Shown: positions 5,204 to 34,909 of the stretch, piece after piece
How positions within the stretch are numbered: the stretch's first letter is position 1
Layout of the letters: each line of letters begins with the position of its first letter
From: Rubripirellula sp.
Lineage (GTDB): Bacteria; Planctomycetota; Planctomycetia; Pirellulales; Pirellulaceae
DNA: 64,000 bases
Assembly (NCBI GenBank): GCA_965216875.1
Contig: OZ244207.1
Coordinates: 2,816,001-2,880,000 of the forward strand
Direction: 5' to 3'
Program-made: the position numbers and the translations under genes
Notes under the pieces: model-generated
What the model saw: only the letters and a program-made list of their open reading frames with translations
Databases searched by the model: none
What the model was told of the DNA's origin: nothing

Positions 5204-5800
5204 ATGCTCCTGTCCGGTGAAGAGATTCGTCAGCGTCTGAACAACGAATTGCTGATCGATCCATTCGACCCCGAGCGATTGAATCCCAACAGCTACAACC
5301 TGGCGCTGCACAACGAATTACTCGTCTACGAGGAAGTCGTTCTCGATGCAGCTTCGCCCAACCGGTACCGCCGGATCGAGATTCCCCCCGATGGTCTGAC
5401 GCTCCAGCCCAACATGCTTTACCTGGGCCGGACGGTCGAACACACCGAAACACACGAATTGGTTCCGATGATCCAGGGCCGCAGCTCGCTCGGCCGGCTC
5501 GGTCTGTTCATCAACCCAGGCGGCAGCATCGGTGACTGCGGCTACTGCGGTACGTGGACGCTCGAAATGCACTGCGTCCAACCGGTCCGCATCTATCCGA
5601 ACATGCAGATCTGCCAGATCTACTACATGCAACTCGCCGGCAAGTGTGCTGAGTATTGCAGCGACAAGTATCAAAACAGTCGCGACATTCAACCGAGCCT
5701 GATGTACCGCGAACTCGGTGGTGACGTCGGCGATGTTCAACTCGAACTCTCGTTCGAAGAATTGCTCCACGAAGCAAGCCGCGGCTCATCGGTCTCGTAG
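5204..5800 (+). CDS. dcd: dCTP deaminase
   Basis: Motifs LNPNSYNLAL, GRSSLGRLGL, GDCGYCGTWTLE and ICQI...KYQ. Confidence 0.92.
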   Translation: MLLSGEEIRQRLNNELLIDPFDPERLNPNSYNLALHNELLVYEEVVLDAASPNRYRRIEIPPDGLTLQPNMLYLGRTVEHTETHELVPMIQGRSSLGRLGLFINPGGSIGDCGYCGTWTLEMHCVQPVRIYPNMQICQIYYMQLAGKCAEYCSDKYQNSRDIQPSLMYRELGGDVGDVQLELSFEELLHEASRGSSVS

Positions 5801-5938
5801 GTCATGCTGTGCATGACTGGTTCGTAGTACCGAGCTTTAGCCGGAATCTTCCGCCCAATGACGCGATCGCGTTTCTACCCACCTTCTGGCGACGGTAGGT
5901 ACGGCTTCTAAGGTGTCATGCACAGCATGACCTACGAG
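5794..5938. repeat. REPIN-like element with perfect 24-bp terminal inverted repeats and nested REP relics
   Basis: CTCGTAGGTCATGCTGTGCATGAC (5794-5817) and its exact reverse complement (5915-5938). Inside lie GTAGTACCGAGCTTTAGCCGG (5824-5844) and CCACCTTCTGGCGACGGTAGGTAC (5879-5902). Confidence 0.85.
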
Positions 5939-10475: not shown

Positions 10476-10769
10476 TCGTCGCCTTTCGCTCCGCGAAAGG
10501 AGCGTCCACGAATGCAACTTTTGCGGAGAGGCTGTGTTCTTTAGTGAGCTGAACGCGCTAGCGTCGGGCCGTGCATGATGAGTTACGGGTGGTGCAGGTT
10601 TCCACTAGAACGAACTCCGGCGCATGTTCGGGACTCGCATAAGCGGCCACGCCTTGAACGCTCCTGCACCTAGGGGCAAGGGCCCGAGCCTCACGGCCGG
10701 CGGCTCACGGGCCCTTACCGCTCAGCGCCCTTACCTCTCGGAGGCCCGACGCTAGCGCGTACGGCTCAC
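10476..10769. repeat. Intergenic MITE/REP-like element with 27-bp terminal inverted repeats, plus an upstream palindromic relic
   Basis: GTGAGCTGAACGCGCTAGCGTCGGGCC (10544-10570) matches the inverted GGCCCGACGCTAGCGCGTACGGCTCAC (10743-10769) at 25/27 positions. A CCTTTCGC-TCC-GCGAAAGG hairpin lies near 10482-10500. Confidence 0.75.
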
Positions 10770-15271: not shown

Positions 15272-15286
15272 ACTCCACCTGATCCC

Positions 15287-15387
15287 ATTCGTGCAATTCG
15301 TCCCATTCGTGGTCACCTCTTCCCGATTGCACGCCGCGCACCTCTTCATCCGTGCGATCCGAGCTATCCGTGGTTCCCTCTTCCCGA
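15287..15387. repeat. Two direct copies (61-bp period) of a 9-bp-periodic triplet motif
   Basis: ATTCGTGCA-ATTCGTCCC-ATTCGTGGT-CACCTCTTCCCGA and ATCCGTGCG-ATCCGAGCT-ATCCGTGGT-TCCCTCTTCCCGA, between convergent genes. Confidence 0.75.
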
Positions 15388-27892: not shown

Positions 27893-29986
27893 CTAATCGA
27901 CACTGATGCTCTCGGTATTGCGTCCAATCCCGTCGTGCCCATTGCCGGACGAGTCTCGGAAGAGGTCGCTTCCCGGTTCATCGTCAAATTGTAAAAGGAC
28001 GAGCGTGGCGTCGGTCTTGTCGAGCGAACTCGGTGGTGTGAATCTGGTCTCATCCGGATAGACAACTTCCTGTGAAATCCTTACCGCATCGATGGCGCCG
28101 ATAAAGAATCGATCGTTCTCACCGCGCGGCAGTCGAGTGGGATCGACACCGCCAACAAACAGTCCCGGCTCCGTTTCGCTCAACTGAAAACGTATCGGAG
28201 ACTGTCGCACAAACTTCCCATCAACGAAAAGCCTTAAGTTCTCGCCGTCCCATGTCCCAGCAATGTGCTGCCACGATCCCGAAAGGTCGCGGGTCGGTTC
28301 GTTTGAGACCGCAAACAACGATCGGCCTTGTTGCAACCGCCCAACGCCCCATTGTCCGTTATGGAAGAGCGTCATCCAGTTCGGGCCCAACCAACAAACC
28401 GGGTTGGCAACATGGACACGATCGAGCCGAGCAAACATCTCAAGCGTCACTTGATCGCCCGGGCCAAAATCGATCGACGGCACATGCACGTACCCGTTGC
28501 CGCGAAACACGAGAGCACGATTGTTGCTTTGCGCCGACGGCAAGACGGACTCGCCCGCCGACACCCGAACCGGCACCTCGTCGGATCGATCGCCTCGCGT
28601 CACCACAAAGACAACGCCTGCGACACCCAACGCGAAACATGCCCCTGCGATCCAAATGAAATTCCGTTGCGATTGTCGCGACGGATTGGAACGCTCAGGT
28701 TTTGAAGGTTGTTCGATCTGCGGCAAGACGGGACCACTTTCATTAGCCCCATCAGACAACGCATCGAGCTTTTCCAGAACAGCGTCCATCGTTTGCGGAC
28801 GTTGCGCAGGTTCCTTGGCCATCATTTGATTGGCGAGCTGCGTCAACTGTGCTGGAATCGGCTCGGAGACCTCCAACGCCGGAATCGGTGCAGTGGCGTG
28901 GGCCAAAATCGTGTCGACAACCGATTCACCTTGGTACGGCGGCCGTCCGCTTACCAGAAAGTACAGCACACAGCCCAAGGAATAGATGTCGCTTCGAGCA
29001 TCGGCGGCGCGCGTGTTGCGAGCTTGTTCGGGAGCCATGTAGCTTGCCGTACCCATCACCGCACCCGACTGAGTCAGCGGCGCCGTCGCGTCCGAATCGT
29101 CGTTGTCCTGGTCTTGATCGAGTCCAAGGCGTGCCAAACCGAGGTCAAGAATCTTGACCGTCCCCCCTTTTTCCAACAACAGGTTCGCTGGCTTAATGTC
29201 TCGATGAACAACGTCGTTGTCGTGCGCGTATTTCAAGCCCCGGGCGACATCGCGAACACAGCGAACCGCTTCTTGCCATGGCATCGGACCACGTTGGCCA
29301 ACGTGCTTTCTCAGATCGATTCCATCGACCAACTCGGTAACCAAGTAGGGGCGTCCATCCATCTCGCCTGCATCGTAAGCCGTGACGACATTCGGATGCG
29401 ATAACTTGGCAGCCGCCAAGACTTCTCGACGAAAGCGTTTCCGTAGTGCGTCTTGATTTCCCAAGTCGCTCCGCATGACCTTGATGGCCACTTCACGTTG
29501 CATCGAACGATGAACGGCATGGTAAACCGTCCCCATGCCGCCGCCACCAATCTTGCCCGCGATCTCGTATTGCCCAAGCTGCGTGGGCGCGGCATCATCG
29601 ATTTCGGTAGCACCACCGGGCGTCAAAGAAAGACGGCTATCCTCATCAGCGCCCAGCGCGGGCGCAGTTTGATCCCCGCGTCGTCCATCGGTGTCGGAAA
29701 GACTTTCCTGAAGCAGTGTCGCAAAGTAACCAGGACGCGTTTTCGGAAAACGCTTCTCGAATTCGGCCACAAGCAACGTTTCGCCGCAACCGGCGCGATA
29801 CTCCATTTCAATGGGCACCATTTGCTCAGTCGCTTCACCGTGCAACGCCTCAGGGAGCTCCCCCAGGAAATCCTCCGTCTTGGGATGATCGGTCCTATCG
29901 GAATCGCGCCATTGGCGCAGCGCCTCCTCGAATGCATCGCAGCAGCGATTGATCGCAAGCAGGTCGTCGGCATCCAATCGACTCAT
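27893..29986 (-). CDS. Membrane Ser/Thr protein kinase with an extracytoplasmic LamG-like domain
   Basis: IGGGGMGTVY, VAIK, HRDIKPANLL, DLGLA, YMAPEQ and DIYSLG; one TM helix; LamG-like WQHIAGTWDG...LFVDG...FIGAIDAVRIS. Confidence 0.95.
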   Translation of the reverse strand: MSRLDADDLLAINRCCDAFEEALRQWRDSDRTDHPKTEDFLGELPEALHGEATEQMVPIEMEYRAGCGETLLVAEFEKRFPKTRPGYFATLLQESLSDTDGRRGDQTAPALGADEDSRLSLTPGGATEIDDAAPTQLGQYEIAGKIGGGGMGTVYHAVHRSMQREVAIKVMRSDLGNQDALRKRFRREVLAAAKLSHPNVVTAYDAGEMDGRPYLVTELVDGIDLRKHVGQRGPMPWQEAVRCVRDVARGLKYAHDNDVVHRDIKPANLLLEKGGTVKILDLGLARLGLDQDQDNDDSDATAPLTQSGAVMGTASYMAPEQARNTRAADARSDIYSLGCVLYFLVSGRPPYQGESVVDTILAHATAPIPALEVSEPIPAQLTQLANQMMAKEPAQRPQTMDAVLEKLDALSDGANESGPVLPQIEQPSKPERSNPSRQSQRNFIWIAGACFALGVAGVVFVVTRGDRSDEVPVRVSAGESVLPSAQSNNRALVFRGNGYVHVPSIDFGPGDQVTLEMFARLDRVHVANPVCWLGPNWMTLFHNGQWGVGRLQQGRSLFAVSNEPTRDLSGSWQHIAGTWDGENLRLFVDGKFVRQSPIRFQLSETEPGLFVGGVDPTRLPRGENDRFFIGAIDAVRISQEVVYPDETRFTPPSSLDKTDATLVLLQFDDEPGSDLFRDSSGNGHDGIGRNTESISVD

Positions 29987-30624
29987 CCAGGAATCTCCGG
30001 CGCGGCACTATCGTCGCAAAGTTGCTCTGACAGCAGATGCCGAACAATACTCATCTTTCTTTCGATCGTGCGTCGCGAACAATCAAGCCGCTTGGCAAGT
30101 TCACCAATCGTTTCACCTGACATTCGCGCAACCGCGACCTGTCGCAATTGAGCGTCGCCCGTCGCATCGAGCCGAGTCAAGAGAATCTGAAACTGCTCGG
30201 ACAACTCCGCAGCAAATTCAGGCGTCGGACTCGAATCGAGGAACACGTCGGCATTCTCGGTAGCCTGAACGAGGGCCTGGGGCGTTGGGGAATCAGCCTT
30301 CCCCGTGCCACCTCGCTTTTTACGGTTTTCGTGCCGAATGGCGTCAACCGATTTGTGCGCGGTGATCGAAACAAGGAGCGGCCATAGGTTCTCTCGACTG
30401 ACCAGCTGTTCGAACCTGCCTTCGCGCGCAGCCAGGCAAAAACTCTTGAGTGCACTTAGTGCGACATCTTCCTCATCACGAACCGCACGCTTTGCCCCCG
30501 CCAATTGGGAAGCTGCGAAGCGAGTCAGCTTCTCGAAATAGGCGGACCACAACCGCTCGGCCGCCAACGAATCACCGGCACGAACGCCGTCGATCCAAGC
30601 GGTGATTTCTTGCGAGGTGGTCAT
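29983..30624 (-). CDS. ECF-type RNA polymerase sigma factor (planctomycete kinase-associated type)
   Basis: ITAWIDGVRAGDSLAAERLW, DEEDVALSA, KRGG and a C-terminal HTH (ELAKRLDCSRRTIERK). Its stop overlaps the kinase ATG. Confidence 0.9.
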   Translation of the reverse strand: MTTSQEITAWIDGVRAGDSLAAERLWSAYFEKLTRFAASQLAGAKRAVRDEEDVALSALKSFCLAAREGRFEQLVSRENLWPLLVSITAHKSVDAIRHENRKKRGGTGKADSPTPQALVQATENADVFLDSSPTPEFAAELSEQFQILLTRLDATGDAQLRQVAVARMSGETIGELAKRLDCSRRTIERKMSIVRHLLSEQLCDDSAAPEIPG

Positions 30625-30782
30625 GTTGAGAAGTCCAAGAAAAGTCGGCTGGAAAAAAGTTTCAGTTTTTTGTCGCACCTCGGTCCCGATTGGCGAGCAA
30701 CGGGTAAAGGCACGTTTTCTGGGGCATTCCCGCCGTGCTTCTCATCATATCGCGAATTCGACGCACACAAAGGATACCAGCG

Positions 30783-32870
30783 ATGACCCGACGACATTCC
30801 TCACGCAAATCGATGTCCAGCCGCCTTCACTCAAACAAACGCCGCCACTCAAACAAACGAGTTGCCCTAACGCGACGACGTCACGCTCGACTTGAAACGC
30901 TTGAGACTCGACGACTGCTTGCCGCCGGCACGGATGACCTTGCGCCTCTCAGTGACGAATTCGCAGACGCGAGTAGCCAATCGGCCTGGATCCGGATCAA
31001 CGAAACCGAAGGATGGAACGCCGACCAATTGCAAGTCTGGGATGTCAACGAAACACAACCCGGCCGCATGGTCATGCAGCCCAATACCGTGGTCTGGTAC
31101 GAAAACTATCGTGGCCCGATGGCCTACAAAGAAGTGACAGGCGATTTCGTGATCACGACTGAAGTGCATATCACCGACCGCGACGATGTCGGCCAGTCCG
31201 ATCCTGACGATGTTCCCGATGACGCCCATTTTTCACTTGGTGGCGTCATGATTCGTTCACCTCGCGATTTGACCAACGCGCCCGTCGAGTGGACGCCCGG
31301 CGGCGAAAACTATGTCTTCCTTTCGCTCGGCCACGGCACAGACGGTAACTTCACCTACGAGGTCAAAACCACCCAAGACAGCGTCTCCAACCTTGAACTC
31401 ACGCCGACCAACACGAACACAGCAACGCTTCAAATTGCGCGCATCGGTAACTCAGTCATCACGTTGCGTCGTGAACCGGGACAAGACTGGATCGTGCACG
31501 ATCGCTTCACTCGAACCGACATGCCCGAATCGCTTCAAGTCGGCCTGGTCTCCTACACCGACTGGACCAAAGCAAACGATTTCACGCCATTCTTTCACAA
31601 CGGCAATGTGCTCCAGCCCGGCGTAGCTCCCGATCCAACTCCCGGCGAAAGCTTCGATCCCGACCTCGTCGCGGGCTACGAATACGCTCGATTCGCACGC
31701 CCCGAAGTGCCCGCCGCACTCGAGGGCGTTGACCTTGTCGGCGCCGCGACCGATGCCCAGCTTCTCTCCTTCCTCGGCGACACTCCCAATCAACCCGCGT
31801 CGATCGACTCCGACGTGGCCGCCATTGACGTTCGCTTTATCGACCTTGACGGAAATCCGATCGAGTCGGTGGAAGTCGGTGAGTCATTCCTCGTCGAACT
31901 TGGTGTCGACGATTTACGAATGGCAGGCACGGGCGTGTTCAGCGCTTATGCCGATGCCGAGTTTGATCCATTGCTGGTGACAACCGGTACCGTTAGCTTC
32001 GGGGCTTCGTTCCCAAATGCTCAGAATGTCGAACCGATCGTCGGCGGCGAAATCGATGAAATCGGTGCGATCGCCAACAACACTCCGGGTGACGGATCGC
32101 GCCAAGTCTTGGCAACGGTTTCGATGACGCCAACGGCAGCAGGCGAGCTGACGGTCTCGACCAACCAAGCCGATCAACTTCCGCTACATGAGTTTGGACT
32201 CTTTGGTTACAACAACCCGGTTGATCCCGAAGACATTCTTTACGGTTCAGCCAGCTTGACGATTGTTGCCGGCAATGCCGCCCCAATCGCCAACGATGAT
32301 GCAACAAACCTGTTCCACACGGCGGGGCCAACCTTGATCGATGTCCTCGCTAACGACACAACCGAAGCGGGCGAAACGCTGTCGATCTCTTCGCTGTCCA
32401 ACGCGGCACAGGCGGGCGGAACGTTCGAGATCATCGACGGACAAGTTCGCTTCACGGCCGAACCAGGGCACTATGGCGCCATCTCGACCGAGTACACGAT
32501 CGATGACGGCAACGGCGGAGAAGCAACAGCGAACCTGACCGTCAACGTGGCCAAACAGTGGCATTTGACATCCGCGCCTCACGACACCAACGATGACGGA
32601 TCGGTTTCTCCGCTCGATGCCTTGAGAATCATCAACGCAATCACGCGCCAAGACGGAGCCTTCGCTGCCGAAGCGGAACCCGAAGGCCCGCTCGGTGACA
32701 TCGAGTACTTCTTGGACGTCAACGATGACGGGCAGGTCACGGCACTCGATGCGTTGCAGGTGATCAACGAGCTCGCCCGAATCAACAATGCAACGCCAGA
32801 AGCACAAGATGACGCACTCATGCTACTGATGCTCGAAGACGAGGCCGAATCTCGCTCACTCCTGTTCTAA
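30783..32870 (+). CDS. Exported multidomain protein: planctomycete export motif, beta-rich domain, cohesin-like and cadherin/Ig-like domains, dockerin-like C-terminus
   Basis: Basic N-terminus with RLETLETRRLLA; APIANDD...IDVLANDT...YTIDDGNGG repeat; paired DTNDDGSVSPLDALRIIN and DVNDDGQVTALDALQVIN. Confidence 0.85.
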   Translation: MTRRHSSRKSMSSRLHSNKRRHSNKRVALTRRRHARLETLETRRLLAAGTDDLAPLSDEFADASSQSAWIRINETEGWNADQLQVWDVNETQPGRMVMQPNTVVWYENYRGPMAYKEVTGDFVITTEVHITDRDDVGQSDPDDVPDDAHFSLGGVMIRSPRDLTNAPVEWTPGGENYVFLSLGHGTDGNFTYEVKTTQDSVSNLELTPTNTNTATLQIARIGNSVITLRREPGQDWIVHDRFTRTDMPESLQVGLVSYTDWTKANDFTPFFHNGNVLQPGVAPDPTPGESFDPDLVAGYEYARFARPEVPAALEGVDLVGAATDAQLLSFLGDTPNQPASIDSDVAAIDVRFIDLDGNPIESVEVGESFLVELGVDDLRMAGTGVFSAYADAEFDPLLVTTGTVSFGASFPNAQNVEPIVGGEIDEIGAIANNTPGDGSRQVLATVSMTPTAAGELTVSTNQADQLPLHEFGLFGYNNPVDPEDILYGSASLTIVAGNAAPIANDDATNLFHTAGPTLIDVLANDTTEAGETLSISSLSNAAQAGGTFEIIDGQVRFTAEPGHYGAISTEYTIDDGNGGEATANLTVNVAKQWHLTSAPHDTNDDGSVSPLDALRIINAITRQDGAFAAEAEPEGPLGDIEYFLDVNDDGQVTALDALQVINELARINNATPEAQDDALMLLMLEDEAESRSLLF

Positions 32871-32894
32871 GGCGTGCGCGTGAGCATCGAAACG

Positions 32895-33550
32895 AACCAC
32901 TGATCCGCATTCACAGAACACCAGCGTCCCCAGACGGAAACAACTTCCATCGAGTGTTCGATTCCGCGGGTCAGTGCCCAAACTTGTGAATCATGGAATG
33001 AGTTCCGGAAATATAGAACCACTAATCAGCACTCATCGAACACTGATCACACCAAGCGGGAAGGCACCTCATCAGTGTTCGATTCCTAGGATTAGTGTTC
33101 CCCAACACGATCCACGGTTTCAAAGAATTCATAATGAGATGCGCAGAGCGGTGCGATTCCGAAGATGTAAAGCCACTAATAAACACTCATCGAAAACTAA
33201 TCACGCCAAGCAAGAGAACCCCTCATTAGTCTTCCAAAACACGATCCACGGTTTCTAGGGCTTCGAAAAAGAGATGGCGTTGAGGGATGAGCTTTCGAAG
33301 ATGTGAAACCACTAATCAACACTCATCGAACACTGATCACGCCAAGCAGATGCACACCTCATCAGTGTTCGATTCCAGGGATTAGTGTTCCAAAACACGA
33401 TGCAAGGATTCAGGGGCTTCGAAAAAGAGATGGCGTCGAGGGACGAGCTTTCAAAGAAGTGAAACCACTAATCAGCACTTATCGAACGCTGATCCCACCA
33501 AGCAAGACCACGCCTCATTAGTGTTCGATTCCTAGGATTAGTGTTCCCAA
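32895..33550 (+). repeat. Tandem array of 5 hairpin-forming units (full unit about 155 bp)
   Basis: Units start at 32895 (degenerate), 33017, 33171 (20-bp deletion), 33307 and 33463. Consensus AACCACTAATCARCACTCATCGAACACTGATCAC-RCCAAGC-N9-CCTC-ATCAGTGTTCGATTCCTAGGATTAGTGTTCC, followed by a ~70-bp linker. Confidence 0.93.
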
Positions 33551-33637
33551 ACAAGCCCGGCTCACTTTCGTCATCTGCGTTCGACGGTTAGTCTTCAGGA
33601 ATCACCGTTCACTTCGCATCTACATCGGGGCAGAAAG

Positions 33638-34006
33638 ATGTTTAAACAGGAAGGTTACGAACTCATGGGGGCGGCTTTTGAAGTGTACAACGTCCTGGGA
33701 TTCGGTATGGCTGACGAGGTCTATCAACAAAGCCTTGAGTTCGAATTGGGATTGAGGAACATCCCGTTCGTCAGCAGAGGGGCGCTGAGGGTCAGTTACA
33801 AGAACCATGTCTTGAAAACGGTCTACCGGCCCGACTTGCTCGTACACGACGAGATCGTCGTCGAATTGAGAGCTGCCAAGACGATTGACTCGGAACATAA
33901 AGCCCAACTCTTCAACTACATGCGAGTCAGTGAGAAAAAGGTTGGGTACCTCATCAACTATGGCACGACCAAGGACCTCCAGTGGCAACGGTTCGTACTC
34001 ACGTAG
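33638..34006 (+). CDS. GxxExxY family protein (PD-(D/E)xK nuclease-like fold)
   Basis: 122 aa; GAAFEVYNVLGFGMADEVYQQSLEFEL, YRPDLLV...IVVELR and AQLFNYM...GYLINYG. Confidence 0.92.
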   Translation: MFKQEGYELMGAAFEVYNVLGFGMADEVYQQSLEFELGLRNIPFVSRGALRVSYKNHVLKTVYRPDLLVHDEIVVELRAAKTIDSEHKAQLFNYMRVSEKKVGYLINYGTTKDLQWQRFVLT

Positions 34007-34060
34007 TGCAACAGCCACGGCCGCTGAAACGCAAAGAGACGCCCATCGAACTGCGACCGA

Positions 34061-34909
34061 CTAGCTCGCGTCCTGATCGACGAGCGACTGTTGGAATGAT
34101 TTCCAGAACGAGCGATCCTTCTGGTATCGGAGTGGATCGATCTGGTTCTTGAAGTAGTCGAGATGTTCAATCCAATCCTTCGTCACTTGCACGTACGAAT
34201 AGTCGCTAGCCGCCATGGGATTGACGAAGTCGGGGCTTCCGGGCTCAGTCGTGCTGACGTAGCGTCCTTCGGCATCGACTTGAATGTTGGCCAACATCAC
34301 GGGCAGCTTCATCTGCAGCTCATAGATCATCCGTTCTCGAAGCGGCATCCCATCGGTCGCTTCGTCCCACGCCATCACCACCTCGCGCGGTGTCGTGCTG
34401 TCAGGAAACCGCAGTCCGTAGGCCTGCCCCGATTGTGTTAGGCCATCGTGGTTGATGTCGACTTGAGCAGCCATCGGAAGCAACAGGTTTAACGCACCTT
34501 CCTCGGAAAGCGAGTCAACTTGGATCGGGTCAGCAAGCCAATTTGCGTTTTGGACGACCTGCAATTCACTCGAGCTGAGTGAGCCAAGGAACGCTTTCGG
34601 ATCAACGTAGCCGCCTTCGCTGTAGGCTCGTCCAAGGAGTGAGCCGTAGGTCTGGCCGAGATCGTGTGGCGCTTCAGCGCTGGCGTAGCGACCGCCCAGC
34701 CTCTCGATTTGGTACCAGCTGTTCCATGAACTCTGAACAAGCTGGTCAAGTGGTTCGTTCGATTCAATGGACTCGGCTGATTCGAATCCGCTGCGACCGA
34801 CGTTCTCCAAGACCTCCGCAAAGACACCTTGGAGGTTTCGGTCCTCGTTTCTCCGCCGCTGCTCGATCGTCAAACCGCTCGTAGCCGAAGCGTCAACTCG
34901 CATGCCCAT
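34061..34909 (-). CDS. Hypothetical protein
   Basis: 282-aa ORF with GGGGG 5' of the ATG; contains LSEEGALNLL...VDINHDGL, one Ca-loop-like motif. Confidence 0.75.
   Translation of the reverse strand: MGMRVDASATSGLTIEQRRRNEDRNLQGVFAEVLENVGRSGFESAESIESNEPLDQLVQSSWNSWYQIERLGGRYASAEAPHDLGQTYGSLLGRAYSEGGYVDPKAFLGSLSSSELQVVQNANWLADPIQVDSLSEEGALNLLLPMAAQVDINHDGLTQSGQAYGLRFPDSTTPREVVMAWDEATDGMPLRERMIYELQMKLPVMLANIQVDAEGRYVSTTEPGSPDFVNPMAASDYSYVQVTKDWIEHLDYFKNQIDPLRYQKDRSFWKSFQQSLVDQDAS

Follow-up and report, generated by a model that had tools for sequence, protein, structure and literature searches.

Does an array of imperfect palindromes that stops just short of a small nuclease-fold gene belong to that gene, and if it does, is it read as RNA or as DNA? 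The question is raised by a 64,000-nt stretch of Rubripirellula sp. DNA (the window; positions 2816001-2880000 of a one-contig 8.26-Mb genome), in which a row of related units is bounded on one side by a dockerin/cadherin gene, whose stop is at 32870, and on the other by a 122-aa ORF of the GxxExxY family (33638-34006, plus strand). The original prediction had treated the array and the gene as one unit, either an RNA array partnered with the protein (guide-like, or antitoxin-like as in type III toxin-antitoxin systems) or a REPIN/RAYT-like selfish element.

The five-unit array and the gene beside it

The five related units were found to start, as proposed, at 32895, 33017, 33171, 33307 and 33463, with unit lengths of 122-156 nt and with each arm made of three phased C(A/G)CTAAT words (more broadly C(A/G)CT(A/G)AT) spaced by 10-11 nt. 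Unit 1 (32895-33016) is the most diverged palindrome and has a shortened linker, unit 2 (33017-33170) consists of a palindrome of phased C(A/G)CT(A/G/C)AT words (~33020-33097) and a linker, unit 3 (33171-33306) is missing ~20 nt from its right arm between two words, unit 4 (33307-33462) is again a palindrome with a linker, and unit 5 (33463-33548) is the palindrome nearest the gene; no strand is assigned to any of them. The leader (33549-33637, plus strand) runs from the last arm to the ATG, with no terminator-like site found in it, and the gap previously given as 87 nt comes to 87-94 nt, varying with the choice of unit end. The array had also been described as AT-rich and as most decayed in its gene-distal unit, and both descriptions hold: it has 48.5% GC against 57.4% and 56.4% in its flanks (the GxxExxY gene is likewise AT-rich at 50.7% GC), and the identity of unit 1 to the other units is 62-72%, against 79-88% among units 2-5.

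By comparing each unit with its shuffles, we found that the proposed long hairpins are present in units 1, 2, 4 and 5 (z of -4.2, -5.3, -5.2 and -4.6 as RNA, and of -3.1, -4.8, -4.6 and -2.8 as DNA), and that the proposal fails for unit 3, which lacks part of its right arm (z -0.6 as DNA and -1.5 as RNA, not significant). A second stem proposed for the linkers, CTTCGAAA...TTTCGAAG, is complete in linker 3, the sole perfect case, has one mismatch in linker 4 and is decayed in linkers 1-2, and it folds no better than shuffles (linker 4, DNA z -0.65; linker 3, RNA z +1.14). Rfam covariance models gave no match at E≤5 across window positions 32700-34200, and none at gathering score in 20 related loci. 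The linkers in the window are not recognisable as gene remnants, and the sequence after the gene shows no detectable trace of a decayed arm. A generic periodic-palindrome detector, with 112 matches versus 9 and 13 in block-shuffled controls, missed the array, in which the words are degenerate and 10-11 nt apart.

Several further features of the window were recorded. The leader resembles the second half of linker 2 in inverted form (1/500 shuffles, in one of 20 comparisons), a likeness that is suggestive only. Other repeats lie at 15286-15387, 1627-1655, 10544-10769 and 5794-5938, and comprise a CACGAAT-like pair and two inverted-repeat pairs (27 and 24 nt). Within 27893-32870, the secreted dockerin/cadherin gene is divergent from two others, one that on inspection resembles serine/threonine kinases and one for an ECF sigma factor. 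The dockerin/cadherin gene, which gave a weak Planc_extracel match, is one of the two genes flanking the GxxExxY gene, and the other has no Pfam match.

The 122-aa ORF matches both PF13366 (PDDEXK_3; E 3.9e-36, 124 bits against a cut-off of 22, residues 4-119, its sole Pfam match) and TIGR04256 (E 1.2e-35, 122 bits against a cut-off of 35), in agreement with the co-oriented GxxExxY gene of the original prediction. Its AlphaFold model (pLDDT 96) was matched by Foldseek to Cas4 SSO0001 (E 5e-5) and to lambda exonuclease (E 3.4e-4), and VIA-align returned several restriction-endonuclease-like folds with middling Z (best 7.8, rmsd 3.5, 98 aligned); a sequence search for a solved relative found none. 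Seven residues are near-universal in 98 family members (E26, E36, D66, E76, K78, Q90 and Y94), and we take the E...PD...ExK...QxxxY residues to be a RecB/Cas4-type active site. The likeness to Cas4, lambda-exonuclease and RecB-type nucleases lies in the predicted PD-(D/E)xK fold, together with a weak PADLOC Cas4 match (E 0.0035); unlike Cas4, the conserved iron-sulphur cysteines are absent (91 of 120 sequences have none at all), and a search for Cas1 found none in this genome (99% complete). A passage of one paper that mentions GxxExxY concerns a Cas4-like gene beside a reverse transcriptase (10.1101/2021.01.26.428298).

The allele in the window departs from the family pattern, and the original prediction had overlooked its loss of two family-invariant residues. 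Its motif reads GxxDxxY, not GxxExxY as had been stated, with Asp26 where Glu occurs in 119 of 119 homologues (Asp26 is seen too in one listed homologous locus, L070); Arg78 replaces the catalytic ExK lysine (Lys in 118 of 119) and Lys88 stands where Glu is usual (111 of 119). Of 69 conserved columns it is off consensus at 8, a number that none of the 119 homologues reaches. The whole locus is also present in a sister strain (run X5), where it is covered by two overlapping contigs; the gene of that strain differs from the window gene at 12 sites (6 silent and 6 non-silent) and has the family's commonest residue at positions 26, 78, 84, 88 and 99. Between the two strains, unit 1 shows ~19 differences in 146 nt, and units 2-5 differ at 8 of 532 listed positions. 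Since the sister strain keeps the consensus residues, selection on the window copy appears to be relaxed and its allele is probably decaying; with the downstream palindrome and two invariant residues lost, this copy probably has reduced activity or none.

A separate arm word for each GxxExxY clade

The relation between protein and palindrome was studied in 106 GxxExxY loci, six of them from this genome (one of 107 gave no match). At least four C(A/G)CT(A/G)AT words were found within 500 nt at 39 of the 40 loci whose protein is at least 53% identical to the window protein (38 distinct proteins; the clade loci below), and none of the 66 loci at ≤45% identity exceeded two such words; 300 random genome sites, taken as a control, had at most three. 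The expectation that close homologues carry flanking repeats was therefore borne out. Distant homologues have words of their own (among them CACGAA, CGCAGAT, CAGGAT, CACAGAG and AAAACT), and the arm types other than ACTAAT include CACGAAT, CGCAGAT and CACAAGAA. In a quick tree of 98 proteins, from which 8 identical or short rows were dropped, all 36 ACTAAT-labelled rows fall in one 38-row branch (SH-aLRT 96) that spans Planctomycetota and Lentisphaerota; the ACTAAT label requires 3 changes versus 29.4 when shuffled, and all arm labels together require 18 versus 55.4. Because kin share flanks, the tree result is clustering and not proven co-evolution.

The same pattern is seen within this one genome, where five short genes of the GxxExxY family are each adjoined solely by their own arm family and a sixth, longer gene has no arms beside it. 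As the arm patterns were built from arms beside genes, only the empty off-diagonal of this comparison and the dispersed copies are informative. All six genes have 50-52% GC against 56% for the genome; the intergenic GC baseline taken alongside is a crude one. A long-form PF13366 gene at G000:C1:1417289-1417606 (open frame ~272 aa, no flanking arms) has similar long forms in many relatives. Across 301 genomes of the family, the clade gene (E≤1e-38) is patchy, occurring in 28, and the arm pattern is present in 27 of these 28 and in 52 of the 273 genomes without the gene, a co-occurrence that is partly circular because the pattern was derived from arms beside clade genes, which also count; a reversed-pattern control was zero in all 301 genomes.

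The clade-word counts and the protein tree support the proposal that array and gene form one unit, with each GxxExxY clade travelling with its own arm word. Among the options of the original prediction, the REPIN/RAYT-like alternative fits best. We think it reasonably probable, from the sequence comparisons given here, that the locus is a DNA element made of a nuclease and its cognate palindrome, in which the protein would bind the words and nick or cut nearby and host repair would spread the units; such an element is likely selfish. The protein would recognise, as DNA, the 7-bp words that are phased along the palindrome arms. Breaks made at or near the arms would be repaired by the host through recombination of one palindrome copy with another, and in this way the cassette would be copied, inverted or deleted and tandem arrays would grow. 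The five units of the window would have arisen by such growth and would not be a functional RNA.

Cassette layout and dispersed copies

An upstream tandem array did not prove to be the conserved unit. The commonest layout, at 23 of the 40 clade loci, is a palindrome on either side of the gene, with the right arm before it and the left arm after it, and in most clade loci arms stand near the start codon. The downstream arm is absent at 9 of the 40, including the window locus and one locus cut by a contig end, and a second locus of this genome also has its array upstream only. In the array of L046, a linker consists of two fused pieces, the leader with the first codons of the gene and the last codons with the tail (L047, L069 and L032 resemble this pattern by eye); since this linker joins the two ends of the gene, arrays can be gene-deleted cassettes.

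The signs of mobility all come from related loci and not from the window locus. The cassette of L030 lies between atpA and atpG and that of L050 between cysD and cysN, both of which are normally adjacent gene pairs. At the intergenic site that in this genome holds a CACGAAT-type paralogue (L164, G000:C1:5381700-5382350), the cassette of congener G002 (L178) shares the arm word but is oppositely oriented, the two proteins being 61% identical and the downstream neighbours 82-85%, and congener G001 (L180) has an unrelated long palindrome and no GxxExxY gene. Target-site duplications were not evident in 17 clade cassettes, whose longest flanking repeats average 5.06 (4.99 when shuffled). An empty site for the window locus was not found in runs X5, X6 and X7, of which X5 has the whole block and X6 and X7 short pieces only, and the window's flanking genes had no match in two congeners. 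At two gene-less ACTAAT sites, congeners are without the hairpins after a shared gene; these are not clean empty sites because the downstream gene differs too. A third such site has a congener match on one side only. As a separate observation, G236:C4 has two near-identical clade cassettes, L095 and L117, at a distance of 3 kb; one of them has an internal stop, and each is flanked by the duplicated start of the following gene.

This layout bears on the first alternative, namely that binding of the arms serves chiefly to control the gene itself, as at an operator, or to guard the host, which would retain the protein as an Ssn-like filter on incoming DNA, and that the palindromes are spread by host recombination and not by the protein. 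Binding alone would account for the clade-word link and for arms near the start codon, arms persist where the gene is absent, and Ssn is described as modulating transformation (PMC11893778). We nevertheless regard a purely regulatory role as unlikely, given that the catalytic residues are near-universal, that the clade is patchy, that cassettes sit in conserved operons and at one site in inverted orientation, and that the GC content of the six paralogous genes is below that of the genome.

The repeat is also found away from the gene. Inverted doublets are dispersed in extragenic space, as is characteristic of REPINs: ACTAAT arms form 14 clusters with 23 arms in this genome (control 1), and each of the four arm patterns with clean controls has 14-40 clusters genome-wide, the CGCAAAG pattern having been set aside as unspecific (35 matches, against 26 in the control). 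The original prediction had counted against itself a repeat that is scattered genome-wide and lacking beside close homologues; the outcome is divided, in that the scatter is there, in 14 clusters, and the repeat does adjoin the close homologues. Three gene-less hairpins (genome positions 47495, 47687 and 83139) share 84-87% identity with unit 4 over a stretch that takes in the loop, and tandem arrays of other families in this genome stand in some cases beside genes and in others alone. Arm matches number 13 in G020 and 11 in G269, both of them one-contig genomes whose only GxxExxY genes are distant ones. In G088, with 103 arm matches and no GxxExxY match found in a genome 73% complete, loci L132-L144 carry the ACTAAT palindrome inside a ~203-bp element with 13-bp terminal inverted repeats and 8-bp flanking direct repeats; the repeat pair is present at 10 of the 13 loci, and the 8-bp duplication is perfect at 4 of those 10. 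This element resembles a MITE that has taken up the palindrome. Since the copies sit in a terminal-repeat element, another transposase can spread the palindrome, and the GxxExxY protein is not needed for dispersal in every case.

These G088 copies with their 8-bp duplications, and the arrays of other families without an adjacent gene, would also be expected if the palindromes were passive flanks, or MITE cargo of unrelated transposases, and the gene hitchhiked without recognising them. That explanation seems to us decidedly improbable: the arm words are conserved, and the loops, linkers and inter-word bases are not, among proteins of 54-73% identity and across two phyla, and flanking direct repeats are at chance level in the 17 gene-bearing cassettes.

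Two other repeat types were noted in passing. Palindrome clusters with a 7-nt period (TTCAGGC and GAAGTTT types) lie far from GxxExxY genes at G000:C1:590900-594420, 606950-607170, 3566800-3567000 and 5685450-5685590, and probably partner another gene family. A dispersed REP-doublet family with arms AGTGGACGAGGC...GCCTCGTCCACT occurs at G000:C1:739116, 1077168, 1736102, 2260041, 6812214, 7166579 and 7668705.

DNA words, RNA helices and known systems

Whether the hairpins are maintained as an RNA helix was judged from pairing counted directly in 38 hairpins from 28 of the 40 clade loci, 33 of which were parsable; no covariance model was used because the loops vary from 13 to 165 nt. In these 33 hairpins, word positions pair at 0.87-0.93, and the 3-4 nt between the words pair at 0.41 and 0.48 versus 0.33 and 0.46 in shuffled arm pairings, of which 119 and 752 of 2000 paired at least as well; covariation is absent at these free stem positions. 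Pairing of the outer words and of the outer flank is slightly above that of the shuffles (reached in 0-3 of 2000), which fits lineage-wide word variants and would also allow a hairpin with regular internal loops. Mismatches read in gene orientation show no strand preference in the 38 hairpins, since G-T (57) and A-C (66) occur at similar numbers, and the two strands of unit 4 are equally stable when folded. A simple scan of the window array found no sigma-70-type promoter site and no terminator-like site. The loops are homologous to one another, with no more than two weak matches in the rest of the genome, and are therefore not guides.

Pairing, strand, terminator and layout all fail to support the guide or type III antitoxin reading of the original prediction, and we consider it very unlikely that the array is transcribed into hairpin RNAs that partner the protein as a type III-like antitoxin, substrate or guide scaffold, even though the array, like ToxI as described in PMC3401426, precedes the gene in the same orientation, four units are stable as RNA folds, a second locus of this genome has its array upstream only and units 2-5 have changed little relative to the sister strain, since against these points stand, beside the results above, ~155-nt units outside the 31-62 nt type III range given there and single palindromes on both sides of the gene in most clade loci. 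The resemblance to toxIN, cptIN and tenpIN is that tandem repeats precede a small gene of the same orientation; in contrast to the RNA pseudoknot repeats followed by a terminator that are described for those systems (PMC3401426), the units here are palindromes. Pfam, NCBIfam and PADLOC gave no ToxN, CptN or TenpN match, and PF13366 spans the whole length of the protein. CRISPR, with its identical repeats, unique spacers and cas genes, had already been rejected in the original prediction, rightly so in that loops and linkers are homologous and Cas1 was not found.

For the preferred reading, a nuclease that acts on its cognate palindrome as DNA, the candidate substrates are a single-stranded hairpin, as for Ssn and RAYT, and duplex DNA in which the words would be spaced by one helical turn. 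We lean slightly towards a reading of words that would not need a perfect helix. A point against the preferred reading is that a hydrolytic nuclease of 122 aa has, to our knowledge, no obvious means of joining DNA.

The closest parallels are two systems of gene and cognate repeat. Ssn nucleases, for which cleavage of ssDNA is shown, cut next to their own flanking hairpins, in a layout that their authors liken to an insertion sequence (PMC11893778). As described there, Ssn with its NTS/SRM is likewise a small nuclease of a single domain whose gene is flanked by a hairpin repeat of its own; the repeat is also dispersed genome-wide, and repeats differ from homologue to homologue. Unlike Ssn, which is of the GIY-YIG type (cd10448) with inverted repeats of 20-50 nt, the system here has a PD-(D/E)xK fold, three phased words and a variable loop, and in the window protein PDDEXK_3 is the only Pfam match, with no GIY-YIG domain, and the fold matches are to PD-(D/E)xK. 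RAYT (TnpA-REP) with REP/REPIN offers the second parallel, as its cognate palindromic doublets flank the gene, are dispersed without it and form tandem clusters. RAYTs are described as tyrosine transposases that are mostly single-copy and vertically inherited (PMC5581495), whereas here the gene adjacent to the repeats is PF13366 and not a Y1 tyrosine transposase, the fold is PD-(D/E)xK, the clade is patchy and five short paralogues with five arm types occur in this one genome.

In the published GxxExxY, PDDEXK_3 and TIGR04256 literature covered by our search, mostly freely accessible papers, flanking palindrome families were not described, and the nuclease-palindrome system is real and apparently unpublished. 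We propose, more tentatively and on odds that we would place somewhat against it, that GxxExxY proteins are widespread sequence-specific PD-(D/E)xK nucleases with clade-specific phased words, forming a new class of mobile elements that act at their own palindromes without a transposase; such an element would insert into, invert at and multiply its own palindromes. If true, this would be the third protein fold, after RAYT and Ssn, with a system of gene plus cognate palindrome, and it would provide many orthogonal enzyme-site pairs from a protein of 120 residues. PF13366 is a large family present in bacteria, archaea and viruses, with its function listed as unknown and with multiple transfers noted (PMC3424549). 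The map from clade to word gives each protein a specific candidate substrate, which makes function testable with oligonucleotides, as for Ssn. Such a system would also explain several dispersed repeat families of planctomycetes, five of them in this genome. The window locus shows turnover in a single snapshot, in which an expanded array stands beside an allele that has drifted from consensus since the split from the close sister strain.
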